NCBI GenBank assembly: GCA_000002435.2
Contig: CM018790.1
Source: Giardia intestinalis
Taxonomy: Eukaryota
Reading direction: 5' to 3' (one strand)
Length of the DNA stretch: 64,000 nucleotides
The notes beneath the pieces were generated by a model. It was not told where the DNA came from and did not search any database. It saw nothing but the letters and a program-made list of their open reading frames with translations. Shown here in pieces: positions 29,584 through 62,483 of the stretch. Every line of letters starts with the position of its first letter. Position 1 is the stretch's first letter. A program made the translations under genes and the position numbers.

Positions 29584-31479
29584 TCACTCAGAAAGGATCT
29601 CAATAATCTCCTCGTATATCAACTCATTAGCAATGTCGAGAGCCGTAGTACCAGCCTCGAATCCAATAAACTCGCGGGTGGATCTTAAGTCCTTTTCCCT
29701 ATCCTTAAGGAGTCTCACACACCCTGGCTCCCTGTTACACACTGCCCACATAAGGGCTGTCCATCCATATTTATCCGTCCTCTTTGTTTCCTGAATATTC
29801 CTTCTAACTGCTCCAACATCTCCAATGCAAGCAGCGCACATAAGGTTTGTCCAGCCCGAGGCATCACGCTCGCTCTTGTGCTCACAGAGCAATCTGACAC
29901 AGTCTGTATGGCCTTCCTCTGCTGCAAACATGAGGGCTGTCGAACCATCACTCTTCTGCATGCCCCCCTCCTTCTCTAGCAATAGTTTAACACAGTCTTG
30001 GTGGCCGTTCTGCGCTGCAAACATGAGGGCGGTCTTACCATCGCTATCCTTCATGCGCGCCTCTTTCTCTAGAAGCAGCTTGACGCACTCTGTGCGGCCG
30101 TTCTGTGCTGCCCACATGAGGGCTGTATATCCCCTGCCATCATGCACACCCGCTTGCTGAAGGTTACTCCTAACCGCATCAGCATCTCCAATGCAAGCAG
30201 CGCACATAAGGTTTGTCCAGCCCGAGGCATCACGCTCGCTCTTGTGCTCACAGAGCAATCTGACACAGTCTGTATGGCCTTCCTCTGCTGCAAACATGAG
30301 GGCTGTCGAACCATCACTCTTCTGCATGCCCCCCTCCTTCTCTAGCAATAGTTTAACACAGTCTTGGTGGCCGTTCTGCGCTGCAAACATGAGGGCGGTC
30401 TTACCATCGCTATCCTTCATGCGCGCCTCTTTCTCTAGAAGCAGCTTGACGCACTCTGTGCGGCCGTTCTGTGCTGCCCACATGAGAGCCGTCTTGTCAT
30501 TGCTATCCTTCATGCCCTCCTCCTTCTCCAGGAGCAGTCTGGCGCACTCTGTGCGGCCGTTCTGCGCTGCAAACATGAGAGCCGTCTTATGGTTGTTGTC
30601 ATATTTGCCACCCTCGCGACTAACTAGCAGTCGCACTACATCCGCATGGCCGTATTCCGCTGCTGTCATTAGAGCCGTCCCTCCGGTCATGCGCCATCTG
30701 TCTATCTTAACACCCCCTTCCGCTTTCTTTCTCTCTTGAAGGGGTAGCAATTCCATCATCTCTGCATCTGTATCTCCATTCTCTGCCGCATTCACGAGGG
30801 ATCTCCTCTGCATGCCACCCTCTTTCTCTAACAGTAGCTTGACACACTCCGCATGTCCACGCAGTGCTGCCATCATGAGGGCTGTCCATCCATCAGGCCT
30901 CTGCATACCCTCTTCTTTGTCAAGTAGAAGCTTAAGGCATTCTACGTGCCCATTCCTTGCTGTAGACATGAGGGCTGTTTCCCCGGCTCCGTCCTTCATC
31001 CCCCCTTGAATTGGTACAAGCAGCCTTACCATTTCAGTGTCTCCCCTGGCTGCTGCCCGCATGAGTGCTGTGACTCCATTCCTATCTGTTGGATCCTCGT
31101 AGGATATAATTACCCTAGTAACCTCTAGGCGCCCGTCGTTGAGAGCATGACGCAGGGCGCTATGATCTTGATCACCCTTCACATCCTTCCCGCGCTCCAG
31201 GACGGACTTTATCGCCTCTATGGGACTATACCCCGCCACCCACATGAGAGCTGTTTGACCATGGTTGTCCTGTCTACAGATTAGATTAAACCTAGTACCC
31301 AGTAACCCCTTGACATCTTCCGTACCATCCTTAGCGGTCTGCATGAGCTCGGTCACACCACCTGAGGGGCTCGGGGGGCCGCCAGATTCAACACGCCTGC
31401 GATCAACATCGCTCTGTGCCATTTTTATTTTCTCTCCTGGCCAAGTGCAATTTTCATTTTCTCTCCTGGCCAAGTGCAT
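29584..31479 (-). CDS. Ankyrin-repeat protein (21.1-type) with an internal, perfectly duplicated 103-aa block.
   Basis: More than 15 ankyrin repeats (TALMWAAQNGRTECVKLLLEKE...). The alternative and more AT-rich start is MAQSDVD.. at 31422 (aaaataaaaATGgca). The 3' end lies about 560 bp from the neighbouring gene. Confidence 0.8.
   Translation of the reverse strand: MHLARRENENCTWPGEKIKMAQSDVDRRRVESGGPPSPSGGVTELMQTAKDGTEDVKGLLGTRFNLICRQDNHGQTALMWVAGYSPIEAIKSVLERGKDVKGDQDHSALRHALNDGRLEVTRVIISYEDPTDRNGVTALMRAAARGDTEMVRLLVPIQGGMKDGAGETALMSTARNGHVECLKLLLDKEEGMQRPDGWTALMMAALRGHAECVKLLLEKEGGMQRRSLVNAAENGDTDAEMMELLPLQERKKAEGGVKIDRWRMTGGTALMTAAEYGHADVVRLLVSREGGKYDNNHKTALMFAAQNGRTECARLLLEKEEGMKDSNDKTALMWAAQNGRTECVKLLLEKEARMKDSDGKTALMFAAQNGHQDCVKLLLEKEGGMQKSDGSTALMFAAEEGHTDCVRLLCEHKSERDASGWTNLMCAACIGDADAVRSNLQQAGVHDGRGYTALMWAAQNGRTECVKLLLEKEARMKDSDGKTALMFAAQNGHQDCVKLLLEKEGGMQKSDGSTALMFAAEEGHTDCVRLLCEHKSERDASGWTNLMCAACIGDVGAVRRNIQETKRTDKYGWTALMWAVCNREPGCVRLLKDREKDLRSTREFIGFEAGTTALDIANELIYEEIIEILSE
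29817..30491. repeat. Two identical 309-bp segments, 29817–30125 and 30183–30491, at a 366-bp period, inside the ankyrin CDS.
   Basis: Six-frame ORF pairs are identical at both positions (29825../30191.., 29715../30069..). The nucleotide strings from 'catctccaatgcaagcagcgcacataagg' to 'gctgcccacatgag' match exactly. Confidence 0.85.
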
Positions 31480-43533: not shown

Positions 43534-46500
43534 TTTACTCCACCCACCGGTTGCTTCCAGTGGTGTGCCGCTGGGGCCTGCCTGGAAGTATGATCCAAAG
43601 ATCTCACAGGTAAGCCTCGCTCAGTCCCTGGCCAGCCCGGAGGCGGGGGCTGGCCACGGGTCGCAGTGATAGCCACAGTGGTGATAGGGAAGAGCTCCCT
43701 CCGTTTGTGGATCTGGGGCCTGTGCGTTCCTCGGCTGTTCTGCGGATGTGCACAGCTGGACTTGAGGCGAAGGAGAGCCCGCGAGGACCAGATCCGTATT
43801 ACGAACGCAAGATCATACCTTTGGGCCCCAGAGAGCAAGCCGTGAGTCTCTACTCGGAGGACCACTTCGAAGACGCTTGCCCTCTCGGCAGGACACACAC
43901 GCTGGCTCTGTGGCCTGCCGTGCGAGAGCGCCAAGCAACCAACCGAGCACCTGAGAGAAGCAAACGATGACAGACACAGAGTGCTGGGCGACGACAAGCT
44001 GATCCTTCCGGCCCACATACCGAACCAGACAGCTGCCATGCTCATCCACCAGGGTGCGCGCATGATCGCGAGCATCGAGCAGGCCGGGACTGGGGTCGCG
44101 CTCCCCGCAATCAGGGGCCTAGACGCCCTGGTGGGAAGCTGCCAGAGGGCCCCTCTGCCAGACAACACCACGGAGCAGTCCCAGAGCAAGGCAGACCCAG
44201 ACCCCGAGAAGGCGAGGCGCCGGATAGCAAACAGGGTGAACAACGCGCTGAGCTTTAATGGCTGCCAGGTCCTCTGTTCCTTGACACACCCACGATAGAC
44301 AAGCCAGAGAAGGCCAAGGCCCCCTCAGCGCGCTACACCCGTGCGTCCCCCCGAAGGCTGCGTTGGCCTTGACTACCCTCCATCGATGAACTCGACAGGG
44401 CTGGAGTGGCAACCGAGGAGGAAATGAGGAAGGCCCTGTTTGGAACTCTCAACAAGAAGGCCTCGGGCGTGTCTGGTCTCGGGCCGGTCCAGCTCAGGCG
44501 ATGAAGCAGAACGACAGCTTTGTGAAATACCTCACGCAGGCGTACAACGAGCTGACCACTCACCCCGAGGCGATACCCGAGGTGACGACCATGTTCGAGT
44601 TCCGGGCGATCCTCATCCCGAAGGAGTCCGACGGATACCCCCGATCGCGATAGGCGGACGGTCACGAACATCTTCCACCGCGTCCTGCTGAAGGGCTGAT
44701 CAGGCATGCCAACTACCTCTCATGCGAGCAGATCGCCTTCAAGCAGAACGCATACGCGGTAGGCGTGAGGAGGGCCCACGAGCTCATCAGCGGGCGGGGA
44801 TGCACGCCGTCTCCCTCGACACAAAGAACGCCCTCAACTCGCTCCCGAGGGCAGAGGTCGTCAGAGCCCTGAACGAGGCGGGCGTCCCGAAGGTCCTGGT
44901 CGACTACATCAGGAACTTCCTCGACCTGAGGCACAGCAAGGACGTGAAGTGCGAGGTCTGCGGCGTCCCCCAGGGCGACCCGCTCAGCACGTTCCTCTTC
45001 TGCATGGCCACCGAGCGCCTCCTGAGACGCCTCGAGGAGAGGGGCATCGCCTTCCTTGCCTATGCAGACGACATCGTGGGGTTCCACGACGAAGGGTACC
45101 CAGCAGGTGTGATAACACAGCAGACCATGGACCTGACGATCAGGAGCGACAAATGCAAGTCCACCATGGCGGGCGAGGAGGTGACCTTCCTCAACCACCC
45201 GGCGTCCCCCACTCCTGCTAGTCTCGCCCCAAAGGCCATCGCAGGTGCCGAGACTGCCTTGAAGAAGATCGAGAATGCCCCAATAACCATCCACCAGAAG
45301 CTCATCCTGGTGTCACTCTGTGTGGTCCCGATGGTGAGCTACGCCCCCCTGGTCGAAGTAACATCGGACAAGGCGGACTACGAGGAGTTCGACAGACGTC
45401 GCACAAGGCATCAGCACTAACCAACAGAAGCTGCGATCGCCTGGTCGACTTCCTAGCGTACCCGAAGGAGAAGGGCGGCCTGGACCTGCTCATGCCTGGA
45501 TTCTACCACGACGAGCTGCGGAGGGTATGGGCCTCCTTGGACGTCAACAAGGGGGCCAGAGACCCGGTGGAGCTGTCGGTGGGCGGCCAGGCACTGCAGG
45601 GGAAGGGGCCTACTTCAACCGCCTCCTCACGCGCACACACCAGCTTCCGGACAGAGCGGCGACGTACTGTCTGCAGATGTGCGGCGTGCTGACCGAGGAG
45701 GAAAGGGCCCTGAAGGAGAAGGGCGGCTCGATCATGGCGCAGAAAGAGGCACCTGCCCGGGCTGCCACGAGGCACGACATGATCGTCGCGTGCCTGTACC
45801 TCCGCGTCTCGGGGAAGCTCAGCGCAGAGCTGGAAGTCAAGACCCACAGCCACCTCAGCGACCAGAACCAGAAGCCCGACATCTGGCTCGTCGACAAGTG
45901 CAAGGCAGTGGACGTGGGTGTCATCCAGCCCCGCCAGATGGATACCACAGCGAGAAGGCCAAGAAGTACAGGGACGGGACGCTCCCGATCATCTACGGGA
46001 CGGACGGATCCCTCCACCCCAGTCCAAGGGGCACCTCAAGGAGCTCCACGTGGACCTCTGTCCGGGCTGCCTTCGCCATCGCCTACATGGCTGCAGAGGC
46101 GAACGAGGACCTGACGGGGCTGATCAGACGGGCCGGGCCGAAAGCCTGGTCACCCCGCCTCCTGTCATCCTACTTCTGACAACCGAATGAGTCCATCCCT
46201 GGGACCCGACGACAACGACCGAGAAGGGGCAAAGACTGGACACACAATCGAGTTGAATCCCAACCAGAAGAGAAAGCCCGCTAGCTGCTGCCGATCTGTA
46301 TGGACAGCATTGAGAATGACAACAAAGACCAGAGCTTCACCAACCGTAAAGGGAGAACAAGGAGAGGCACCCTAGTAGACCAGCGAGCCTGCAGGACGGC
46401 GTGATCTCCAAAAGGACCGATGTGCACACCCAGTCTGAGTGTACTCCTGTAGAATAGCCGAGGAACGCAATAGCTTCTCCCTACAACCGATGTGATTATC

Positions 46501-49600: not shown

Positions 49601-49956
49601 ACACCAGATCAGAGCGCCCCGTGAGCCAGTCTCTGCTGATCCACATCTTCTATGGACTCGGTATCTCCTCCAGAGACTGCGAGGATCCGCTTTCGGGTGC
49701 TATCCGTCAGGCAACCGGGCCAGCAGGGGTCGTCTGGGGGGACGCCACAGGGACAGAGAGAGCACTGGCACACGGGGGTCCACAAGGGGTCGATCCGCAC
49801 AGGGAAGGCACAAGGCCCAGCTCTCCGAGGATGTAGAGACACCGGAAGAGGGACTAGCGAGAGGCTGCAGGCACGTGGGTGGTCCCGTGCCTATTCATGG
49901 ACTTTCTGTTTCCCTGCACGGTGGGCTGAGTATCACAGGCCACACGTAGTGGATGC

Positions 49957-49963
49957 GTTTACT
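49957..49963 (-). promoter_or_regulatory. AGTAAAC polyadenylation signal of the VSP gene.
   Basis: The plus strand reads gtttact. On the minus strand it is AGTAAAC, about 20 nt downstream of the CRGKA stop codon. Confidence 0.65.
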
Positions 49964-49982
49964 ACCTAAGTCATATCTAAAT

Positions 49983-52595
49983 CTATGCCTTTCCGCGGCA
50001 GAGGAACCACCAGCAGAGGAAGCCCACAAGACCCCCTACAACAACAATCACAGCGACGGAGATACCGGCTATGGCCCCCGTGCTGAGGCCGCTCTTGTTG
50101 ACGCTTCCACCAGTGCCTGCTTCTGATTCTAAGCATATGACTGAACTGCCAGATGACGACACACATTGCTTGCATCCAGAGATCTTCTCTGAGCACTTCT
50201 TGCATAACCCATCAGTGGTATCGTCACCGTTTTCCTTGTAATACCCAGTGGCACAAGTCTTACACTTATCAGCCGCATCTGCAGTCGAGCACGTAGCACA
50301 AGTAGAATGGCACTCCCCACAGGCCCCACCTTGTGCCTGTAGTCCGTTGGCACATGTCTGACATGTTCCTCCCTGTGCACTACTACAGACCTGCTTACCA
50401 GGCTGTCTATCTGTCTGATAGCAGCCGCCGTCCTTGAGGAAGTAACCCTCATTGCATTGTGTACAGGCCCCATTTGTGATTGTTGCACAGAAGGCTGCTC
50501 GTGAATTGGCCGCACAGTTGCCGTTCAAGGGGGCCTGAGTAGAGGTCTTGCACTTTGAGCAGTATGCAGTTCCTCCTATTTGGGCCCCACATGTCTCACA
50601 GCCAGTGCCATCTGCAGACACTTTGCACGCATCCCCGCAGGCGCCTCCGTTATTAGGATGGCTGTCATCTGTATATGTCAGTTTCTTGCCAGCAGGACAG
50701 GCACTGCACTGATTGTTGGCCGGCCCAACGCACTCAGCACACTCAGGGCTGCATGCCTTACACTTCTTGTCATTATCTCCGTAGTATCCGCTGATGGCTG
50801 TGCAGTCAGGTACGCATTGGTTTGTTGGAGTGAGATAATTGTTATCATTACATTCAGTGCAGGCCTCGTTGTCGGTCTTCGGGTTATCGCAGGCCTTGCA
50901 GTTGGGCGTGTTGCACGCCTTCTCGACGCACTGGCCCCCGTTCAGGACGTAGGCGGGGTCGCACGCCGTGCAGGCCTCGTTGTCGGTCTTCGGGTTATCG
51001 CAGGCCTTGCAGTTGGGCGTGTTGCACTTCCTCTCGACGCACTGGCCCCCGTTCAGGACGTAGGCGGGGTCGCAGTCAGTGCAGGCCTCGTTGTCGGTCT
51101 TCGGGTTATCGCAGGCCTTGCAGTTGGGCGTGTTGCACTTCCTCTCGACGCACTGGCCCCCGTTCAGGACGTAGGCGGGGTCGCAGTCAGTGCAGGCCTC
51201 GTTGTCGGTCTTCGGGTTATCGCAGGCCTTGCAGTTGGGCGTGTTGCACGCCTTCTCGACGCACTGGCCCCCGTTCAGGACGTAGGCGGGGTCGCACGCC
51301 GTGCAGGCCTCGTTGTCGGTCTTCGGGTTATCGCAGGCCTTGCAGTTGGGCGTGTTGCACTTCCTCTCGACGCACTGGCCCCCGTTCAGGACGTAGGCGG
51401 GGTCGCAGTCAGTGCAGGCCTCGTTGTCGGTCTTCGGGTTATCGCAGGCCTTGCAGTTGGGCGTGTTGCACGCCTTCTCGACGCACTGGCCCCCGTTCAG
51501 GACGTAGGCGGGGTCGCACGCCGTGCAGGCCTCGTTGTCGGTCTTCGGGTTATCGCAGGCCTTGCAGTTGGGCGTGTTGCACTTCCTCTCGACGCACTGG
51601 CCCCCGTTCAGGACGTAGGCGGGGTCGCAGTCAGTGCAGGCCTCGTTGTCGGTCTTCGGGTTATCGCAGGCCTTGCAGTTGGGCGTGTTGCACTTCCTCT
51701 CGACGCACTGGCCCCCGTTCAGGACGTAGGCGGGGTCGCAGTCAGTGCAGGCCTCGTTGTCGGTCTTCGGGTTATCGCAGGCCTTGCAGTTGGGCGTGTT
51801 GCACTTCCTCTCGACGCACTGGCCCCCGTTCAGGACGTAGGCGGGGTCGCAGTCAGTGCAGGCCTCGTTGTCGGTCTTCGGGTTATCGCAGGCCTTGCAG
51901 TTGGGCGTGTTGCACGCCTTCTCGACGCACTGGCCCCCGTTCAGGACGTAGGCGGGGTCGCACGCCGTGCAGGCCTCGTTGTCGGTCTTCGGGTTATCGC
52001 AGGCCTTGCAGTTGGGCGTGTTGCACTTCCTCTCGACGCACTGGCCCCCGTTCAGGACGTAGGCGGGGTCGCAGTCAGTGCAGGCCTCGTTGTCGGTCTT
52101 CGGGTTATCGCAGGCCTTGCAGTTGGGCGTGTTGCACGCCTTCTCGACGCACTGGCCCCCGTTCAGGACGTAGGCGGGGTCGCACGCCGTGCAGGCCTCG
52201 TTGTCGGTCTTCGGGTTATCGCAGGCCTTGCAGTTGGGCGTGTTGCACTTCCTCTCGACGCACTGGCCCCCGTTCAGGACGTAGGCGGGGTCGCAGTCAG
52301 TGCAGGCCTCGTTGTCGGTCTTCGGGTTATCGCAGGCCTTGCAGTTGGGCGTGTTGCACTTCCTCTCGACGCACTGGCCCCCGTTCAGGACGTAGGCGGG
52401 GTCGCAGTCAGTGCAGGCCTCGTTGTCGGTCTTCGGGTTATCGCAGGCCTTGCAGTTGGGCGTGTTGCACGGCGCTTCTGGGTCCTTGGTGCACTGCTTC
52501 GTGTCATTGTTGATGGTGTAGCCCGGGAAGCATGTGTCCTTCTCGTTGTACTTGGCCAGCACGGTTGCACAAACTAGGAGAAATCCTACCAACAT
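49983..52595 (-). CDS. Variant-specific surface protein (VSP), cysteine-rich with CXXC motifs and a tandem-repeat core.
   Basis: Start MLVGFLLVCATVLA (signal peptide) at 52595. Dozens of CXXC motifs follow. The transmembrane tail GLVGFLCWWFLCRGKA* is the invariant VSP C-terminus. An AGTAAAC polyA signal lies at 49957–49963 on the minus strand, about 20 nt after the stop. The track ORF extends to an upstream non-signal-peptide start at 52796. Confidence 0.9.
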   Translation of the reverse strand: MLVGFLLVCATVLAKYNEKDTCFPGYTINNDTKQCTKDPEAPCNTPNCKACDNPKTDNEACTDCDPAYVLNGGQCVERKCNTPNCKACDNPKTDNEACTDCDPAYVLNGGQCVERKCNTPNCKACDNPKTDNEACTACDPAYVLNGGQCVEKACNTPNCKACDNPKTDNEACTDCDPAYVLNGGQCVERKCNTPNCKACDNPKTDNEACTACDPAYVLNGGQCVEKACNTPNCKACDNPKTDNEACTDCDPAYVLNGGQCVERKCNTPNCKACDNPKTDNEACTDCDPAYVLNGGQCVERKCNTPNCKACDNPKTDNEACTDCDPAYVLNGGQCVERKCNTPNCKACDNPKTDNEACTACDPAYVLNGGQCVEKACNTPNCKACDNPKTDNEACTDCDPAYVLNGGQCVERKCNTPNCKACDNPKTDNEACTACDPAYVLNGGQCVEKACNTPNCKACDNPKTDNEACTDCDPAYVLNGGQCVERKCNTPNCKACDNPKTDNEACTDCDPAYVLNGGQCVERKCNTPNCKACDNPKTDNEACTACDPAYVLNGGQCVEKACNTPNCKACDNPKTDNEACTECNDNNYLTPTNQCVPDCTAISGYYGDNDKKCKACSPECAECVGPANNQCSACPAGKKLTYTDDSHPNNGGACGDACKVSADGTGCETCGAQIGGTAYCSKCKTSTQAPLNGNCAANSRAAFCATITNGACTQCNEGYFLKDGGCYQTDRQPGKQVCSSAQGGTCQTCANGLQAQGGACGECHSTCATCSTADAADKCKTCATGYYKENGDDTTDGLCKKCSEKISGCKQCVSSSGSSVICLESEAGTGGSVNKSGLSTGAIAGISVAVIVVVGGLVGFLCWWFLCRGKA
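50857..52468. repeat. About 14.3 tandem copies of a 111-bp (37-aa) unit inside the VSP CDS: CNTPNCKACDNPKTDNEACT[D/A]CDPAYVLNGGQCVE[RK/KA].
   Basis: The 111-bp period is visible directly: 'gtaggcgggg' recurs at 51062, 51172, and so on. Two unit types alternate in the order D D A D A D D D A D A D D A, reading N-terminus to C-terminus. Confidence 0.9.
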
Positions 52596-53388
52596 TAGCC
52601 GGAGTACACGTGCCACTGCCCTTCCGTCAGGCTGGTGCATTGGCCGCGAGCAGTGAGAGACAGCCGCTCTTGCTCTCTTGACCAGTTGGACCGGAGAAGA
52701 ACGAGATAGGAGCACGCCCACCGGAGGCCAGTTGATAGTGCAGTTTCCCTGACTTCCATAGGAACAGGATCGGTGAGGACCAGACTCAGATCGCACCTCT
52801 CTTGTGGAGTGATTGTTCGGGGTGCACTCCTGTACATTGCTGTGGGGTATTCGTCGGCTTCCTCTGCGGGGGCTGGTGTCCCGGTAGTAAACGCACCGAA
52901 GAGTCCTGCCCGTGACTTTCTGGGCACCGATTGCGAGGGAGCCCCTGGTGCGTGATGGGTTCTAAAAATGCAGTGAGCACGGGTGATCCTGTAGGGCATG
53001 CAGCCTCAGAAGAGAGCACCGACGTGGCCAGTGCTGAAAGGGCACTAGACCCTGCATGGCCCACGTGGATGAGTGGCGGAGGAGGGCAGAGAACGCGGGC
53101 GAGTGCTGCTAGATGGCCGTGCACACGTGGAATGGCCATGACTGCACAGTCGAGGGAGCTGGCGCAGAGTACTAGTAATGCGCGATGGTCACGAGTGGCC
53201 AGGACAGACAGGGACGCCATGGCATGCAAGGGCGCTCCACAAGGTACGGGACGACGTGTCTGCTGTCATGGACACAAGCTCGAGAAGCGAGGCTGGCAGA
53301 GGCCTGCGCTCTCTCGTAGCCTCTGAGGGTGCGGCCCAATCACTCGTTCAATCCGATCGCTTGGTCTTATTTTTGGAAACAAACTGTC

Positions 53389-56346
53389 ATGGCTGACGGC
53401 GATGACCACGCAGCCAGCTCCCAAACATCGGCCCCCGCCATCCCACAGTTCACCATCAGGGACCTCCACGAGTGGCTGGATAGCGTGCTTAATGAAAGCA
53501 CCATGGGGACAGTCTACTCCCTCGAGGGCTATCCAAACCTCGCCGTGAAGGAGATCCTCCTCGACGGCCTGGGCAAGAGCAACGTGGACGCTATCAAGCT
53601 TGAGCTGGCCACCCTCCCCGACCTCTCCCATCCAGGGGTTCTCAGGCACCATCAAGTAGTCGAAGACGAAAGCTTCATTTACATCGTCATGAATCGCCAC
53701 GACAAGACCCTTGAGCAAGTGTTTATCGACTGCAAGCGGAGGAAGATCCCCGTGTCTGCCGGCGTGGTCCTCTCCATTCTGAGACAGCTCTCCGCCGCCC
53801 TCGCCTACCTCCATGGCCTCAGTGGGGCAAACACTAAAGGCCTCGTCCACCGCGACCTCAGGCCTGCCAATATATTTATCAGCGCAGACGGAGAGCGCTT
53901 CATCATTGCTGACTTCGGCCTCTGCAAGGACGCCCTGAGATGCGGGAGCACCATTGCAGGCACGGCAGTATACATGGCCCCCGAGGCGCTCCTCCGTAAT
54001 GAGGCCAGCCCCGCCTCCGACGTGTGGAGCCTCGGGGTCATCATTTATGAACTAGTAACTCTGAGGAGGCCGGACTTCTTGGGGGGCAAGGAGCCGGCAG
54101 AGGTCTTCATCGATGGGTGGAGGCCCGATCTGAGCGGTGTCACTGATGGCTTCATGCAGAATGTTCTGGAGAGGATATTCGTGCTGGAGCCAGAGAGGAG
54201 GCCGACGGCCAGGGAGCTGTGCAAGATGCTCACTGCGGCTGACATCCCAATTGGTGAGCTGGGGCATCGGTATGTGGCACTAGAAGACAAATGCAGCGCC
54301 TTGGAGGCTGCTTTGAACAGTGCTAATGCTAATATCGTGCTTCTGAAGGACGAGCTCAAGGTCGAGTCGGATAAGGTCACTGCTCTTGAGGCAGCCCTCG
54401 ACGCCAGGTCTGCTGAGATTGCCTCTCTAAAGGGCGCTCTTGAGAGCAGACCAAGTGAGGTCGACGCCCTGGGACAGGAGCCCCGACTTAAGACCACCGG
54501 GATTGACGCTCTTGAAGATCAGTGCAAGGAGTATTCAGCCATGATTAAGGCACTAGAGAATAGATTCACAGAAGTTAGTGGTGGGATGAACACGAGTAGC
54601 CCCCAGAGCAACCTCTCCACGCTGCCTAGACTGATACGAGCTGCATACACGAATGACACAGAGACCGTCCGGGTGCTAATTGAAGAGGGAGTCACCGGCC
54701 AGCGCGACGAGCAGGGGATGACAGCCCTCATGCACGCGGCCCAGCAGGGGCACATTGGTCCTGTCAGGCTGCTTGTTAAGAAGGAAAAGGGTATCAAAGA
54801 TAAAAACGGCTGGACCGCGCTCATGCACGCCGCACATAACGGCCACCCTGAGGCATCTAGGATCCTCACCCCTCACGAGCATGGGCTTCAAGACTTACAT
54901 GGCCATACAGCTCTGATGATCGTCGCACAGCAGAGAAATCTTGAAATGGCCAAGATCCTCCTTGGTCGTGAAAAGGGGATGAAGGACAAGGACGGTAATA
55001 CAGCCTTCATGCACGCCCTCATGAATAAGCACACAGGCATAGCTCTGCTTCTTCGCAAGCATGAGGCACCCTCGTGGACCCCGCTCATGTGCGCGGCCTT
55101 CACTGGAAATGTTACCATGGCGAGGAGGCACCTCCATGAGAGAGACGTGAAGAACAGCGACGGCGAGACTGCGCTGACCATAGCCGCGAGGGCGGGGCAC
55201 AAGGACATCGTGGAGCTCCTCGACCCCACAGATGAGAATGGCGTCACTGCCCTCATGCGAGCTGTTGACAGAAATGATGTAGATACTGTGAAGGCCCTCC
55301 TTCCCCTCCAGGGGGGACAGAAGGCGACGGGGGATGTCGAGATAGGCAAGCTGACTATGTACGGTGGAACGGCGCTGATGAGGGCAGTAGCACATGGCTA
55401 CGCAGAGATAATGGAGATGCTTGTGGAGAAGGAGGGGGGCATGAGAGATAGGAATGGTAAGACGGCCCTTATGATAGCAGCAGAGAAAGGCCACCCAGAG
55501 TGCATTAAGCTACTGGTGAGAAACGTCCGTGAGCGTAATTCCTTGAGCTGGACAAGTCTTATGTATGCTGCTTGCATTGAGGATGCTGATGCAGTTAGGA
55601 GTAGCCTTCAGGAAGCGGGGGTAAAGGATAGTGATGGATGTACGGCTCTCGTGTGGGCTGCAAGAACTGGTCACACAGAATGTGTCAAGCTACTCTTAGA
55701 GAAGGAGGGCGGGATGCAGACAAGTTATGGTTCAACAGCCCTCATGAGTGCAGCAGAGGAAGGCCATGCAGGGGCAGTGGAGGTACTCCTGGAAAAAGAG
55801 GGACGCATGAAGGATAGTGATGGACAGACAGCCCTTATGTATGCAGCACAGAACGGCCACTCAAAATGTGTTAGACTACTAGTAAAGAAGGAGGGAGGCG
55901 TGCAGGATATTTTTGGACGGACCGCCCTCATGAGTGCAGCAGAGGAAGGCCATACAGACTGCCTTGCGCTTTTGCTAGAGAAGGAGGGAGGTATGAGAGA
56001 TGACAATGGCAAGACCGCCCTCATGCTTGCAGCAAGGTATGGTAGCACAGACTGTTTTAAGCTCCTACTAGAAAAGGAAGGAGGTATGAAAAGTAACAAT
56101 GGACAGACAGCTCTTATGGCTGCAGCAAAGGAAGGTCACTCTGCCCACATCGCGCTGCTCTTGGAGAAGGAGGGGGGCATGCAGGATAGTGACGGATGGA
56201 CCGCCCTCATGTGGGCAGTCTCCTGCAGACAGATAGAGTGCGCGAGACTCCTCGCAGAGAAGGAGAAGAACGTAAACAGGAGGAAGCTCTTGGGGATAGT
56301 CAAAAGGAGAGGCAATAGCAAGATGATGGCCCTCCTCTCAGAGTAG
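53389..56346 (+). CDS. NEK-family serine/threonine kinase with coiled-coil and C-terminal ankyrin repeats. Catalytic residues are intact.
   Basis: GTVYSLEGYPNLAVKEI, LVHRDLRPANIFIS, IIADFGLC, AVYMAPE, DVWSLGVIIYEL, then coiled coil (KCSALEAALNSANANIVLLKDELKVESDK..) and more than 12 ankyrin repeats. AGTAAAC at 56351–56357 lies 4 nt after the stop. The start was re-set to MADGDD.. by paralogy with 23042. Confidence 0.9.
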   Translation: MADGDDHAASSQTSAPAIPQFTIRDLHEWLDSVLNESTMGTVYSLEGYPNLAVKEILLDGLGKSNVDAIKLELATLPDLSHPGVLRHHQVVEDESFIYIVMNRHDKTLEQVFIDCKRRKIPVSAGVVLSILRQLSAALAYLHGLSGANTKGLVHRDLRPANIFISADGERFIIADFGLCKDALRCGSTIAGTAVYMAPEALLRNEASPASDVWSLGVIIYELVTLRRPDFLGGKEPAEVFIDGWRPDLSGVTDGFMQNVLERIFVLEPERRPTARELCKMLTAADIPIGELGHRYVALEDKCSALEAALNSANANIVLLKDELKVESDKVTALEAALDARSAEIASLKGALESRPSEVDALGQEPRLKTTGIDALEDQCKEYSAMIKALENRFTEVSGGMNTSSPQSNLSTLPRLIRAAYTNDTETVRVLIEEGVTGQRDEQGMTALMHAAQQGHIGPVRLLVKKEKGIKDKNGWTALMHAAHNGHPEASRILTPHEHGLQDLHGHTALMIVAQQRNLEMAKILLGREKGMKDKDGNTAFMHALMNKHTGIALLLRKHEAPSWTPLMCAAFTGNVTMARRHLHERDVKNSDGETALTIAARAGHKDIVELLDPTDENGVTALMRAVDRNDVDTVKALLPLQGGQKATGDVEIGKLTMYGGTALMRAVAHGYAEIMEMLVEKEGGMRDRNGKTALMIAAEKGHPECIKLLVRNVRERNSLSWTSLMYAACIEDADAVRSSLQEAGVKDSDGCTALVWAARTGHTECVKLLLEKEGGMQTSYGSTALMSAAEEGHAGAVEVLLEKEGRMKDSDGQTALMYAAQNGHSKCVRLLVKKEGGVQDIFGRTALMSAAEEGHTDCLALLLEKEGGMRDDNGKTALMLAARYGSTDCFKLLLEKEGGMKSNNGQTALMAAAKEGHSAHIALLLEKEGGMQDSDGWTALMWAVSCRQIECARLLAEKEKNVNRRKLLGIVKRRGNSKMMALLSE

Positions 56347-59153: not shown

Positions 59154-62100
59154 CTAGCGCCCCGTGTCGATGCGTTTGAAGGGGTAGAAGCCATCAGGGG
59201 CATGCGGCTTGGGAGGACCGACGCGCTTGAAGAAGGACGGCAGGGCCTTGTGCACCGGCTCGGGTGCTCCTGCATCGTCGGGGCTGTCGTCATCCAGTGG
59301 AGGCGGGGAGGGGGCCCTTGAGCACATGAAGGGGTCTGGGCGTTCGTTTGCATCCGGCTGTGCGGGGTGATCGGTGCCCCAGGTGATCGAGGAGGAGACC
59401 TCAGCAGGACCCCAGGGAGGAGGGACTGCCGCATCAGGATGCTGGCTGAGATCGGCCATGATCTCTACGGAGGGCGACGTGCCAGGGCTCCACATGGCAG
59501 GGGTGAGGGGAGTAGGAGGAGTAGCCCGAGCCTCGTTGGGAGCCGGTTCCGGCAGGGATACTGCAGGGGCGGGGCGGTGCACCGGCCTCTCCACTCGCAG
59601 CCCAGCGTACAGGAGGGCCGACAGCCTGTAGTGCCAGAGGATGACCTGCGCCGCCTCCTGCATGAAGCGCGCAAGGTCCACGCCGGCGAACGCGAGTCCG
59701 GCCGCAGACAGGTGGTGCAGGACGCCGTCAGCACCGACCACGACGGGGAGGATGTGGGCCGCCCGCCCCTGGAGCACGAGGGGGCGATACTTGGCGGCCT
59801 TCAGGGCATAGGACCGCTCCAGCCTCCACGGGACAGTGACCACCAAGTCCCCGAAGCCCCCACCGATGACAAGGTCAGGCTGGAGGTGATCCACTGGGAT
59901 CGTGGGATTGCGCACAACAGACCCAGCGCGACCGCGGGAGCACGCGAGCAGGGCGTCCAGAATCTTGTCGTGCCGCGCCACGTGAATCCCGTTAATGGCC
60001 TTGCACACCAGATGGTGCCTGGGAAGGAAGGGCTGCTTGCAGTGGCAGCACGTGCCCATCGGCCGGCCCCGCTGGTACCTCCCCGCCAAGCAGTCCCCTA
60101 TGAACAGGACCTGCGTGTTGTCCAGGGGTGCGCAGCCCAGCAATGCGAGCGGCAGGAAGGATCGGAGCGCGGCCGTGTCCTGCAGGCGCTTCTTCCTCAG
60201 CTCGCGGAAGACGCCCGCCTTCATGTCCTGGCGCTGCCTGTGCATCTCGTCGTAGTAGTGATGGGGCAGCACCAGTCCGAGGCCGTACTTCGCGCGGGGC
60301 GTCAGAGCAAGGGTCTTCGCAAGGGGTTCGGGGATCTCCAGAAGGGTCGCGACCTCCTCCACTATCTGCGCATCGACGTCGGCATAGGGGGACGGGCCCG
60401 GGTAGTCGTCAACAAGGGGTCCATAGTTAACTGCAGGGACGACGCAGGCAGACAGGAGCCTGAGGCGGTCGTGGAGTGAGAGACCCGAAGCACGGAGGAC
60501 GGCGAGATGCTCGTGGAGCCGGCGGGCCGATGTCTGCGCGAGGTTGAAGGAGGAGTGCTTGAGCACGCGGGTGCCCATGAAGGAGATCGCCCCGGCCTGG
60601 GTCGAGGAGCACTTCGAGAGCTCGACCGTGAGCCCTATGCGGGAGAGGGCAGACTGCGCGTCACTCTTCACGGTATCTATGGGAATCGCCTCCTCTGACG
60701 CAATGACGAGGTCGTCGGCGTATGCAACGACCTTGTACTGGCCGAGGTACGTCTCCACCGGCCAGACAAGGCTCTGGCAGAACATCGCCATGGACAGCGG
60801 GTCCCCCTGTGGCACGCCCGCTGGGACCGCGGGGAGGTCCGAGGAGTGCCGAGCCGCGAGGAACGACTCAATGTACGCGACGGTCGGCTGGACCACCCCT
60901 GCCCGGCGGAGCGCAAAGAGGATGACGGAATGCGGGACGCTGTTGAAGGCATTCCGCACATCCACCGTGAGCAGGTGGTGTGTCCTCTTCAGCTCCTCGG
61001 CCGCGCGGATCGCCTTCATCTGGGCGAGGTGCTCAAAGGCCAGCTGCCACGCCGGGAGCTTGCGGAGCGCGGGAGTCCGACGCAGGAGCAAGCGGTGGAA
61101 GGCGACCAGAAGCGTCTCCTGCACTGCGATAGGGCGCCATCGGCCGCCAGACTTGGGCAGAAGCTTCAGCCTGAACTCGCACAGGGGCTGGAGCTGGGCC
61201 CAGTTCCTGCTGGAGAAGAGGGTCGTCAGGACAGAGGTGAAGAGCTCCGCAGCCCCGGCGGCCCCACAAAGGTGCAGGAGGTGAGGCTTCCCCAGCCCAG
61301 AGGGTCCGGCCGCGACAGGCCTCATCGCCTGCAGCTCCTTCAGCAGCGCCTTGGCCGTTATCTTGGGCGACGGGCCGAGCACGTGATGGACGGGGGGCAG
61401 AGAGACAGGCATGGGGCGCGGGTGGAGCTCATGGACAATCGCTTCCCGCTCCTTGCCCTGGGGCTCGGGGACCCTGGCGGCAGAGGACGTCTCGCTCAAC
61501 AGCGCCTGCCATGCCCGGCCGAGCAGCCCCTTCCGGAGAAGCGACTGCGCCGGGGGGAGCCGTCCAGAGCCCTCCATGCGGCGGCACGTCGAGAGGAAGC
61601 GCGCTAGGGCCTCTACAGGAGGAAGGCGCCCCGCCATCTCTGTGAATACGTCAGTGAGGAGGCGAAGCAGCTCAGGGGACGGGCTGCCACTAGGCACCCC
61701 GATGCGCTCGGGGACTGTGGCGTCGAGCGGGAGGTAGTGGCCGAGCCTGGCGATATGGGCCTTCAGCCCCCTCTCCGTTTTGTATCGGGCCCGGCACATG
61801 CTGCATGCATACGGGAACACAGGGTCCGGCGTTGGCGAGGGAGAGGGCTCGGCGGCTGCAGGTGGAGGGGCAGACCCCGACAGCGGAGAAGGGCTGCGCG
61901 ACGGAGAAGGTGAACCGGGAGGCGGATGGTGCATCCCGATGTGGACATCGATCGCCGCAGAGTCAGGCAGCACCTCTCCGCAGCGCTCGCAGACAGTCGT
62001 ACGGCCCCCAGGAGCAGGCAGGTCTGCGCCCCGGGCCTCCTGCTCGTCCGTGATGGACGGGGAGTTGTCGTGGCCCAGGTCGTATGGGAGGCCGTCGTCG

Positions 62101-62483
62101 GGAATCGGGAGGGGCTCCTGGCCACAGGGCAGAAGGTCGTTCGACAGGCAGGGAGGAGAGGCGTCCCGGGCCACCGAGGCCCCGGAGCCCTGTAAGCCAT
62201 GGACAGGAGAAGACTCATTGGGAGAGTTGTCCGTGGCGGAACGGCTGTTGCCAGGCCCAGGCTGGGGGGATGGGGGCCCGTGGGAGCCGCAGAGGGGCTC
62301 GCAAGAGGAAGGCCGGGCCATGGCGGTCGTCGAGGCATCGTTGCCGTCACCCAGCGTCATAGGATCGGGAGTGCCCCTAGGTAGGGGCCTGTGGGAGTCG
62401 GTTGGAGCGTGGTTGGGAGGCTCTGGGCCTGAGGAAGCCCCGATCTCCGTGGTTCCCGAAGGCGCGGAAAGGGCGGAACGCAT
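59154..62483 (-). CDS. Retrotransposon ORF encoding reverse transcriptase, a CCHC zinc finger, and a restriction-enzyme-like (PD-(D/E)xK) endonuclease. 1109 aa.
   Basis: RT motifs FNSVPH, GVPQGDPLSMAMF, VAYADDLVIASEE. C-terminal CHCKQPF..HHLVCKAINGIHVARHDKILD, then QPDLVIGGGFGDLVVTVPW...KAAKY, the R2/NeSL/Genie-type endonuclease. The ATG at 62483 lies 2 nt from the A15 tail of the upstream copy. Confidence 0.85.
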   Translation of the reverse strand: MRSALSAPSGTTEIGASSGPEPPNHAPTDSHRPLPRGTPDPMTLGDGNDASTTAMARPSSCEPLCGSHGPPSPQPGPGNSRSATDNSPNESSPVHGLQGSGASVARDASPPCLSNDLLPCGQEPLPIPDDGLPYDLGHDNSPSITDEQEARGADLPAPGGRTTVCERCGEVLPDSAAIDVHIGMHHPPPGSPSPSRSPSPLSGSAPPPAAAEPSPSPTPDPVFPYACSMCRARYKTERGLKAHIARLGHYLPLDATVPERIGVPSGSPSPELLRLLTDVFTEMAGRLPPVEALARFLSTCRRMEGSGRLPPAQSLLRKGLLGRAWQALLSETSSAARVPEPQGKEREAIVHELHPRPMPVSLPPVHHVLGPSPKITAKALLKELQAMRPVAAGPSGLGKPHLLHLCGAAGAAELFTSVLTTLFSSRNWAQLQPLCEFRLKLLPKSGGRWRPIAVQETLLVAFHRLLLRRTPALRKLPAWQLAFEHLAQMKAIRAAEELKRTHHLLTVDVRNAFNSVPHSVILFALRRAGVVQPTVAYIESFLAARHSSDLPAVPAGVPQGDPLSMAMFCQSLVWPVETYLGQYKVVAYADDLVIASEEAIPIDTVKSDAQSALSRIGLTVELSKCSSTQAGAISFMGTRVLKHSSFNLAQTSARRLHEHLAVLRASGLSLHDRLRLLSACVVPAVNYGPLVDDYPGPSPYADVDAQIVEEVATLLEIPEPLAKTLALTPRAKYGLGLVLPHHYYDEMHRQRQDMKAGVFRELRKKRLQDTAALRSFLPLALLGCAPLDNTQVLFIGDCLAGRYQRGRPMGTCCHCKQPFLPRHHLVCKAINGIHVARHDKILDALLACSRGRAGSVVRNPTIPVDHLQPDLVIGGGFGDLVVTVPWRLERSYALKAAKYRPLVLQGRAAHILPVVVGADGVLHHLSAAGLAFAGVDLARFMQEAAQVILWHYRLSALLYAGLRVERPVHRPAPAVSLPEPAPNEARATPPTPLTPAMWSPGTSPSVEIMADLSQHPDAAVPPPWGPAEVSSSITWGTDHPAQPDANERPDPFMCSRAPSPPPLDDDSPDDAGAPEPVHKALPSFFKRVGPPKPHAPDGFYPFKRIDTGR

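Follow-up and report, generated by a model that had tools for sequence, protein, structure and literature searches.

The CRP136/VSP136 family of Giardia VSPs (CRP136, TR120 x 22, L29079; VSP136-3, AAG37860; GL50803_0050225) is organised around a common scaffold. Its paralogues have in common a signal peptide, a brief N-terminal segment and a C-terminal region of about 310 aa that ends in a transmembrane helix followed by CRGKA, and they differ in the cassette that is amplified just after the signal peptide. The alignment and the sequence of GL50803_0050225 place the cassette site between the N-terminal segment and a conserved CNTPNCK..NQCVPD module. GL50803_0050225 amplifies a 40-aa module there, and judging from this repeat it is likely to be the CRP136 locus. 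Documented repeat behaviour comes from vspA6 (CRP170) and vspC5, with units of 195 bp and 105 bp respectively, for which allelic copy-number variation and immunodominant repeats are on record; recombination among vsp genes has also been reported (Adam 2010). The same catalogue defines the Inr classes in a table and cautions that its repeat copy numbers are approximate owing to assembly condensation (Adam 2010).

GL50803_0050366 (XP_037901765.1) is an annotated VSP encoded on chromosome 2 of Giardia intestinalis WB. The window, that is the whole stretch of 64,000 nucleotides analysed here, comes from this chromosome in the PacBio reference, and the identity of the gene at 52595..49983 is as good as certain. 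Its length, Cys and CXXC counts and sequence are those of an entry in the supplementary tables of bioRxiv 10.1101/2022.03.07.483299, where it is already catalogued as a repeat-containing VSP, and the product of the neighbouring NEK kinase gene is 100% identical to XP_037901766.1 of the WB contig. The features of the gene outside the repeats are as follows.

49983..52595, minus strand: coding sequence of GL50803_0050366, 870 aa plus stop, from the ORF and its translation
52591..52597, minus strand: initiator element TAATGTT over the start codon (ATG = 52595..52593), read from the sequence
52554..52595, minus strand: signal peptide MLVGFLLVCATVLA, common to the CRP65-type, CRP136-type and VSP136-3 paralogues
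52470..52553, minus strand: N-terminal non-repeated segment KYNEKDTCFPGYTINNDTKQCTKDPEAP, 28 aa, from the alignment and colinear with VSP136-3
49986..50075, minus strand: transmembrane segment AIAGISVAVIVVVGGLVGFLCWWFL and cytoplasmic tail CRGKA, from the translation and the TM and tail columns of the bioRxiv 10.1101/2022.03.07.483299 table
49953..49972, minus strand: conserved VSP 3' motif GACTTAGGTAGTAAACGCAT, which holds the poly(A) signal AGTAAAC (49963..49957)

VSPs as a class have a Cys-rich ectodomain (approximately 11-14% Cys) with many CXXC motifs, and the translation of GL50803_0050366 contains 127 Cys (14.6%) and 42 CXXC. It matches Pfam PF03302 (VSP) with 274.3 bits against a gathering score of 31.4 (E=2e-81), carries a signal peptide and ends in ..AIAGISVAVIVVVGGLVGFLCWWFLCRGKA*, a VSP-type transmembrane segment followed by CRGKA, while the gene is flanked by the Inr and the poly(A) motif. 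These features bear out the preliminary description, which had called the gene a VSP from its letters. The signal peptide rests on sequence reading and on the signal-peptide column of the bioRxiv 10.1101/2022.03.07.483299 table; the same source enters 'taatgtt' for this gene and gives its 3' motif in Table S6. The window might have held another VSP copy in inverted orientation, but this was ruled out, as the conserved VSP 3' end occurs only once.

Sequence comparison assigns GL50803_0050366 to the CRP136/VSP136 scaffold subfamily. It is colinear with the VSP136-3-type P0178 at 84% aa identity over 387 aligned positions and with O97448 at 78%, and clustering at 90% groups it with VSP136-3 and a CRP65-type protein. 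The signal peptide MLVGFLLVCATVLAK is identical to that of the family, the N-terminal segment (TCFPGYT.N.DTKQCTKDPEAP) and the TAATGTT initiator are the same, the C-terminal region is colinear, and a six-cysteine module is amplified at the same position. In the alignment VSP136-3 retains a single 37-aa unit, and the array of GL50803_0050366 corresponds in position to the 40-aa module amplified by GL50803_0050225. Unlike CRP136, whose unit is 40 aa (120 nt) and of other sequence, GL50803_0050366 repeats a unit of 37 aa (111 nt), the first half of which equals the following conserved module CNTPNCKACDNPKTDNEACT, and does so in two variants. The earlier reading as a 'CRP136/CRP170-type' repeat VSP thus stands in its first half, on the strength of the signal peptide and the identity to the VSP136-3-type paralogue; CRP170 with its 195-bp repeat is an analogy only, since the scaffold is not shared.

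As a tandem repeat, the array goes far beyond what chance would give. TRF reports a single array at 50854..52470 with a period of 111, 14.6 copies, 96% matches, no indels and a score of 3024, in close agreement with the 37-aa units, about 14.3 in number, that had been described at 50857-52468 and with the 111-bp period expected there. On the coding (minus) strand the register comprises 14 full units (52469..50916) and a further 62 nt (50915..50854) that repeat the unit start. A 42-nt unit probe has 15 exact matches, all in register and none elsewhere in the window, where 0 are expected by chance. Two DNA unit types, and only two, are present: type a, or D (..ACTDCDPAY..CVERK), and type b, or A (..ACTACDPAY..CVEKA), which differ at unit positions 60, 62, 63, 107, 109 and 110. 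Within each type identity is complete (9/9 a-copies and 5/5 b-copies alike), and the two variable clusters go together in 14/14 units. The unit order is DDADADDDADADDA, i.e. D D A D A D D D A D A D D A. The two types and their order are exactly those that had been noticed before.

51804..52469, minus strand: units 1-6, D D A D A D, the first 666-bp block, from the unit table and the lag-666 comparison
51138..51803, minus strand: units 7-12, D D A D A D, the second 666-bp block, 100% identical to units 1-6
50916..51137, minus strand: units 13-14, D A, of which unit 13 keeps the period and unit 14 breaks it
50854..50915, minus strand: partial 15th copy, 62 nt of unit start, followed by the unique family-conserved module ..ECNDNNYLTPTNQCVPD
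50580..52577, plus strand: antisense shadow ORF, 665 aa from TTG or 639 aa from ATG 50658

The module ..ECNDNNYLTPTNQCVPD downstream of the array is single-copy in approximately 70 homologues. Homologues found by a search with the whole protein carry the 37-aa module in a single copy only, arrays immediately after the signal peptide were seen in 17 homologues, and the other VSP arrays looked at are homogeneous, unlike the two-variant array of GL50803_0050366. When four units (a-a-b-a) were used as the query of a word-indexed protein search, no match reached E<=1e-5. A single scan of a metagenome, with a degenerate probe of 47 nt for the unit, produced 0 matches, and the PDB sequence search gave no match.

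The unit is predicted to be a 37-aa, six-cysteine, furin-like beta-hairpin module. In the AF2 model (pLDDT 85.6) four strands recur every 37 residues, and Foldseek retrieves the furin repeats of R-spondin with a probability of up to 0.99 and a target-normalised TM of up to 0.68; the cysteine-rich domains of ErbB match more weakly. On this model the 14.6 copies would lengthen the ectodomain into a chain of identical modules, and the in-frame gain or loss of whole units would be structurally tolerated. By analogy with vspA6, the array probably displays an immunodominant epitope many times over.

The antisense ORF at 50580..52577, which had been flagged as one that should not be annotated, exists at its full length of 665 aa and is not a gene. 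A Pfam search of it finds no family, three of the six frames are stop-free across the array region, and its GC1 of 0.88 mirrors the GC3 of 0.80 of the sense frame. It is a predictable artefact that is best left unannotated.

The order of the two unit types raises the question of whether the array has a higher-order period of six units (666 bp). Since the longest period handled by TRF is 500, the 666-bp period was examined by direct lag comparison and enumeration. DNA mismatch at lag 666 is 6/888 (0.68%) versus 2.2-4.1% at lags of 1-5 and 7-10 units, which makes it the lowest of the well-sampled lags; lag 11 shows 0/333 from three unit comparisons only, and lags 12-13 draw on two and one. Because the units within each type are identical, the evidence for the period reduces to 14 binary characters, and the array contains no block-specific base differences that could independently confirm a duplication history. 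In a full enumeration of the 2002 possible orders (nine D, five A), at least 7/8 matches at lag 6 occur in 3.0% (P=0.03 for a pre-specified lag), and at most one mismatch at some lag from 2 to 7 in 15.6% (P=0.156). If only orders without adjacent A units are admitted, as observed here, the two figures rise to 5.6% and 33%. Six units is the size of the largest tandem square in 3.0% of the 2002 orders, and in 9.5% once adjacent A units are disallowed. The 6-unit periodicity is only marginally beyond chance, with P≈0.03 for the lag specified in advance and 0.1–0.3 after fair corrections.

Measured against higher-order repeats, block-to-block identity does exceed unit-to-unit identity, units 1-6 being equal to units 7-12, in two block copies only. 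The period is not kept along the whole array including the terminal partial block, as it is broken where unit 8 (D) is compared with unit 14 (A), and the trailing D A does not correspond to the D D with which a block starts. The earlier claim of a duplicated 6-unit block is upheld as far as the complete identity of the two blocks goes, with marginal statistical support, and the 666-bp periodicity that had been proposed as its check is present as the lowest mismatch among the well-sampled lags, with a significance that depends on how the question is framed (P 0.03-0.33). Over that same range the contention that the order arose 'rather than random interspersion' is not established, and the 'partial third' block is contradicted by the tail.

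A minimal duplication history of the observed order takes four steps with unique intermediates, and each minimal path includes exactly one 6-unit step. A two-unit ancestor DA would have become DDA, then DDADDA and then DDADADDA, and one duplication of six units (666 bp) would have completed the array. This final step would be an internal duplication within the 8-unit precursor DDADADDA, of which units 13-14 (D A) would represent the right end. The nested tandem duplications may have come about when sister or homologous copies exchanged unequally, or by replication slippage. As all copies of a unit type are perfectly identical, the expansion must be recent or subject to continuous homogenisation. 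The duplication path, its molecular mechanism and the immunological role of the repeats are what we infer; what is shown is the identity of the gene, its family and anatomy, the order of its units, the unit variants that it shares with a paralogue on chromosome 5, the mosaic in its C-terminal region and the difference between assemblies. As a whole, the account of a VSP on the CRP136/VSP136 scaffold that grew by nested duplications including a single 666-bp step is held with confidence a little better than even.

Its main competitor dispenses with any block event. The array could have passed through many small gains and losses of one or two units, accompanied by short conversion tracts between D and A, and the period would then be coincidental. 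This would be in keeping with the frequency at which some period from 2 to 7 fits by chance (15.6% of all orders, 33% without adjacent A), with the break between units 8 and 14, and with the share of orders that four duplications or fewer can build, 8.4% overall and 37% where A units are never adjacent. The paralogue GL50803_00137605 moreover has a unit that is an a/b hybrid, which shows that the two variable clusters can recombine. It has to contend, however, with the P=0.03 for a lag that the preliminary description had named in advance, with the low mismatch at lag 666 and with the linkage of the clusters in all 14 units, where short conversion tracts within the array are not seen. We regard it as rather unlikely.

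The count or order of the units could also be an artefact of assembly or consensus, e.g. a blend of alleles in a tetraploid or an assembler error, and the unit order does rest on one assembly of a tetraploid organism; exact-match look-ups with the VSP (870 aa, and 886 aa when read from the upstream ATG), two further ORFs of the window and the neighbouring kinase yielded no contig. Some grounds for suspicion come from the 2010 catalogue, which used a Sanger-based assembly and lists VSP189 with TR111 x7, 626 aa, 85 Cys and 28 CXXC (Adam 2010). VSP189 fits GL50803_0050366 with seven units read from the upstream ATG, from which the present gene would encode 886 aa; an identity with VSP37 (GL50803_41626, TR111 x 9, 718 aa) is rejected because the length, Cys and CXXC of VSP37 suit GL50803_0050366 at no unit number, while those of VSP189 all fit. 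The difference between 7 units there and 14 in the PacBio reference may be assembly collapse and not biology, in line with the warning on condensed repeats in that catalogue, and the length variation that had been suggested for this VSP is seen between assemblies with the same reservation. Mapped reads likewise show higher allelic variation around VSPs, and structural variants within isolates are enriched at VSPs. Against an artefact in the present sequence, the PacBio long reads from which the reference was built cross the 1.6 kb many times, its assembly was verified by split alignments, optical maps, Quiver and Illumina correction, and the six diagnostic bases are perfectly linked into two clean types rather than a noisy blend, so that an artefact appears improbable. 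The older version differs by seven units, not six, and is not simply the array minus one block.

A true higher-order repeat amplified block by block, as had been proposed earlier, with two complete 666-bp blocks and a third that is cut short, is equally improbable. Units 7-12 do repeat the 666 bp of units 1-6 with 100% identity and unit 13 is in period, but the block is present in two copies only, the D A of the third 'block' would require an extra one-unit deletion to be reconciled with D D, and the simpler four-step history accounts for the tail without an extra event.

A close relative of the repeat unit itself lies on chromosome 5 rather than 2. GL50803_00137605 (VSP145 / 'S2', AY142123, TR111 x 3) shares the 111-nt unit in 3.6 copies versus 14.6 in GL50803_0050366, has a related terminal module and a C-terminal region that is near-identical in part, but differs in its signal peptide (MLIGF..) and N-terminal segment. 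Its units 2-3 hold all six b-diagnostic bases and are identical to type b at 110/111 positions, the one difference being a T (Val) in place of C (Ala) at position 53, and its unit 1 is an a/b hybrid; the RK-type (a) form of cluster 2 is not seen there. The six differences between a and b fall into two 4-nt clusters (P ~2e-4 for independent hits), and this clustering, together with their occurrence in the paralogue, rules out point mutation inside the array. The C-terminal region of GL50803_0050366 is in turn a mosaic of paralogue lineages, in which the 53 informative sites fall into 15 runs (P=0.0005). Given the near-identity to the paralogue and this mosaic, unit types a and b did not arise inside the array but were inherited or moved by ectopic conversion. 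An origin of the two types outside the array had been missed in the earlier reading. It is a tentative proposal, which we consider somewhat doubtful, that the pattern records nested unequal exchanges of 1, 3, 2 and 6 units and that the sharing with the paralogue and the mosaic reflect ongoing ectopic conversion between chromosomes. If true, the locus would be a natural reporter by which mitotic or inter-nuclear recombination and the turnover of repeats could be measured in a parasite that is tetraploid and rarely sexual.

Both the reference annotation and two published catalogues already contain the gene, its family and its tandem repeats, and the patterned repeat is a biologically ordinary detail with little import beyond annotation practice. 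The increase from 7 to 14 units between the Sanger-based and PacBio sequences is nevertheless a concrete warning on VSP repeat numbers in older assemblies. The two unit variants are internal markers that few VSP arrays have and could separate block exchange from single-unit slippage, and the sharing of a unit variant across chromosomes, beside a C-terminal region that is a mosaic, is one more specific instance of the known recombination among vsp genes.

Overall, GL50803_0050366 resembles the CRP65-type VSPs (O97448/AAB06228, 645 aa; KAE8301901, 1937 aa) in its signal peptide and C-terminal region (78% aa) and in an array that begins directly after the signal peptide. Their repeat, unlike the present one, is a two-module cassette of 76 aa (228 nt) that is unrelated to it and has protein-identical units, whose number differs greatly between the sequences (4 versus approximately 21), and they carry the 37-aa module in one copy only. 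With vspA6 and vspC5 it shares an ectodomain that is mostly tandem array; their scaffolds and unit sequences are different, and the likeness extends only to architecture and presumed behaviour. Satellite higher-order repeats, e.g. primate alpha satellite, are similar in that diverged monomers are arranged in a repeated block with greater identity between blocks than between monomers. In contrast to alpha satellite, GL50803_0050366 has two block copies and two monomer types within 1.6 kb, codes in frame throughout, and shows its higher-order pattern with marginal support.

GL50803_0050366 (XP_037901765.1) is an 870 aa VSP encoded on the minus strand (52595..49983); the window holds no second VSP. 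Its assignment to the VSPs in the preliminary description is confirmed by a match to the Pfam VSP family (PF03302, E=2e-81), by a start ATG at 52595 that sits inside the initiator TAATGTT, by the sequence GACTTAGGTAGTAAACGCAT after the stop, with the Giardia poly(A) signal inside it, and by the listing of the exact gene under both identifiers in supplementary tables to a 2022 preprint about cysteine-rich proteins of Giardia, as a "VSP with INR" on NC_051857.1 (chromosome 2) (10.1101/2022.03.07.483299). The gene is entered there with 2613 nt, 870 aa, 127 Cys, 42 CXXC, taatgtt and the signal peptide MLVGFLLVCATVLA, and Table S2 apparently records 15 repeats (10.1101/2022.03.07.483299). Independent counts from the window sequence agree with this entry, and the C-terminal end of the product reads ..GLVGFLCWWFLCRGKA*. 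The gene and its repeats are thus already annotated and catalogued. XP_037901765.1 is missing from a 15-billion-sequence protein collection in which its neighbour XP_037901766.1 is present, so exact-match and homology searches there are blind to the gene.

Other ORFs in the window include the following.

623..14944, minus strand: very long ORF of 4773 aa
29584..31479, minus strand: ankyrin-repeat protein ORF with a 366-bp unit x 1.8 (100% identity) at 29817..30486
44722..45420, plus strand: RT-domain ORF of 232 aa (RVT_1 E=4e-16; motif FLAYADDIV)
53389..56346, adjoining the VSP and divergent from it: NEK/ankyrin kinase, 100% identical to XP_037901766.1 / KAE8302556.1 of G. intestinalis WB
59154..62483, minus strand: RT/zinc-finger ORF of 1109 aa (RVT_1 E=3.8e-21; C2H2 zinc finger)

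XP_037901766.1 / KAE8302556.1 is located on a 1,539,535-bp WB contig from the chromosome-scale PacBio assembly that serves as reference (Xu et al. 2020, PMC7000408). About 5.7 kb downstream of the VSP (roughly 44.3-49.9 kb) are without convincing genes except for the reverse-transcriptase ORF, apparently the relic of a retrotransposon close to the VSP on its downstream side. The ORF at 59154..62483, upstream of the VSP beyond the NEK kinase, appears to be that of a full-length non-LTR retrotransposon. This setting matches the gene-poor, gene-family-rich surroundings described around VSPs (Xu et al., PMC7000408). The 366-bp ankyrin unit overlaps with an older ankyrin periodicity of 93 bp and seems to have been duplicated internally very recently.

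Tandem Repeats Finder (TRF) reports only one array in the VSP, at 50854..52470, with a period of 111, 14.6 copies, 96% matches, 0 indels and a score of 3024, and the sole long sense ORF that spans it is on the minus strand. In the coding register it comprises 14 complete 111-nt units (52469..50916, minus strand), followed by 62 nt (50915..50854) that reproduce the start of a unit exactly before unique sequence begins. A 42-nt unit probe finds 15 exact in-register matches and none elsewhere in the 64 kb. Two unit sequences occur and no further ones:

Unit type a (D): encodes ..ACTDCDPAY..CVERK, 9 copies
Unit type b (A): encodes ..ACTACDPAY..CVEKA, 5 copies

The types differ at unit positions 60, 62, 63, 107, 109 and 110, and identity within each is 100%. 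Read unit by unit, they run D D A D A D D D A D A D D A, in full agreement with the first description. As each type is invariant, the array DNA is informative only as a 14-letter binary string.

The array had further been described as a 666-bp (6-unit) block, duplicated and followed by a partial third. Since TRF was restricted to periods of at most 500, the 666-bp lag was examined by a self-comparison of the array, shifted by every multiple of 111. Lag 666 yields 6/888 mismatched nt (0.68%), every one of them between units 8 and 14, against 2.2-4.1% at lags of 1-5 and 7-10 units; lag 11 gives 0/333, from three unit comparisons only, and lags 12 and 13 provide two and one. Chance levels come from exhaustive enumeration of the 2002 ways to order nine D units and five A units, and of the subset without adjacent A units.

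Frequency of array properties among all 2002 orders and among orders without adjacent A
At least 7/8 matches at lag 6: 3.0%; 5.6% without adjacent A
Fit at any lag from 2 to 7, allowing up to one mismatch: 15.6%; 33% without adjacent A
Tandem square of 6 units present: 3.0%; 9.5% without adjacent A
Buildable in at most 4 tandem duplications: 8.4%; 37% without adjacent A

A history search finds that the shortest tandem-duplication history takes 4 steps through a single series of intermediates, and exactly one 6-unit step occurs in every minimal path. The array would have grown from DA to DDA, DDADDA and DDADADDA, and then by one 6-unit duplication. The data thus fit a single 666-bp duplication in an 8-unit precursor. 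The higher-order organisation was nevertheless put too confidently, as the enumeration leaves room for the unit order to have arisen by chance or by small steps without any block duplication. The 6-unit block reading is therefore plausible and parsimonious, yet statistically not compelling. In detail the partial third block is incorrect, since a block starts D D and the tail is D A; on the shortest-history reading the trailing D A would be the right end of the 8-unit precursor. The D/A order rests on one assembly. "Higher-order" organisation is unmentioned in the main text of the preprint (10.1101/2022.03.07.483299), which makes the block pattern a minor addition to the description at most.

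The six differences between a and b form two 4-nt clusters (unit positions 60-63 and 107-110; P ~2e-4 if hits were independent). From a to b they comprise a synonymous change in T, D to A, and RK to KA, making three amino-acid changes that leave the unit net charge at -2. In b units both clusters make the heptamer GGCGTGC, immediately preceding a Cys codon. Units 2 and 3 of the paralogue GL50803_00137605 (chromosome 5; VSP145/S2, TR111 x 3) carry all six b-diagnostic bases and are 1 base (position 53) from the b type, and its unit 1 combines the a state in the first cluster with the b state in the second. The non-repeat C-terminal part of GL50803_0050366 (49986..50915, minus strand) shows strong clustering of the amino-acid sites that separate the VSP136-3 type from the 137605 type, in that about 17 sites in a row are VSP136-3-like, after which comes a long stretch of the 137605 type (53 informative sites in 15 runs, P=0.0005). 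This clustering indicates that the gene is a mosaic of paralogue lineages, of recombinant origin. Judging from the shared bases, the a/b variants are best explained by inheritance from paralogues or exchange with them. Both readings fit the recombination reported for vsp genes (Adam et al., PMC2996952).

VSP189 is listed in the Sanger-assembly catalogue, without gene number or chromosome, as TR111 x 7 with 626 aa, 85 Cys, 28 CXXC and TAATGTT (PMC2996952). Reduced to seven units, GL50803_0050366 is computed to have 611 aa, 85 Cys and 28 CXXC, and an in-frame upstream ATG at 52640 adds 15 Cys-free residues (52640..52596, minus strand; MHQPDGRAVARVLRL) to give 626 aa. The upstream ATG accounts for the VSP189 length, and the real start is the ATG within TAATGTT. 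From the matching aa, Cys and CXXC counts it is concluded that VSP189 is GL50803_0050366, which the older assembly shows with half as many units. Repeat numbers are approximate owing to assembly condensation, as Adam et al. caution, and they refer to differences in copy number among alleles of vspA6 and vspC5 (PMC2996952). The 76-aa repeat of a CRP65-type paralogue is present in about 21 copies in PacBio WB (KAE8301901) versus 4 in the cloned GenBank O97448, and the CRP65-type VSP27 has 4 copies in the 2010 catalogue (PMC2996952); this gap has the same explanation, under-counting or variation, as that for GL50803_0050366.

An antisense ORF of 665 aa is present at 50580..52577 (plus strand); close to where it begins it has a single in-frame ATG, at 50658. 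In the array, half of the six frames are stop-free and every unit keeps the frame, which makes long open frames automatic. The antisense ORF has a GC1 of 0.88, which mirrors the sense GC3 of 0.80, and it belongs to no Pfam family, as its best match (E=0.23) misses the family cutoff by a wide margin. The preliminary description was right that it should not be annotated; it is a shadow ORF.

In an AlphaFold2 model of units 13-14 and the C-terminal region (68-sequence alignment, mean pLDDT 85.6), four short strands repeat every 37 residues. Foldseek gives weak, consistent matches to furin-like cysteine-rich repeats, among them R-spondin Fu1-Fu2 (probability 0.99, target-normalised TM-score 0.68) and ErbB cysteine-rich domains (E ~0.007), in agreement with SMART results in the preprint (10.1101/2022.03.07.483299). 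In the model each unit looks like a self-contained module, which would explain the tolerance of whole-unit gains and losses.

The best database match of GL50803_0050366 is O97448 (AAB06228, "cysteine-rich protein"), whose signal peptide is identical and whose C-terminal part aligns locally at 84% identity, but whose array is a different one of 76 aa x 4. VSP136-3 (394 aa), which lacks an array, falls in the 90% cluster of O97448, as does a WB protein of 1937 aa in which the 76-aa unit occurs about 21 times. The VSP136-3 type is colinear over its whole length with a one-unit version of GL50803_0050366 (84% identity), and has a single 40-aa module, CNVEGCETCVEGNAQQCKTCRPGYTINTDTKQCTKDPEAP, in place of the 37-aa unit. 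GL50803_0050225 (1154 aa) shares this scaffold and amplifies exactly the same 40-aa module; it probably corresponds to the CRP136 type, listed as TR120 x 22 (Adam 2010, PMC2996952). Among the retrieved homologues, 17 have an array of 35-101 aa period that starts immediately behind the signal peptide; together with the amplified cassettes of the paralogues, these arrays make the architecture a known one. The analogy originally drawn with the CRP136-type family is therefore right, as GL50803_0050366 is built on the colinear VSP136-3 scaffold and GL50803_0050225 amplifies its own module at the equivalent place.
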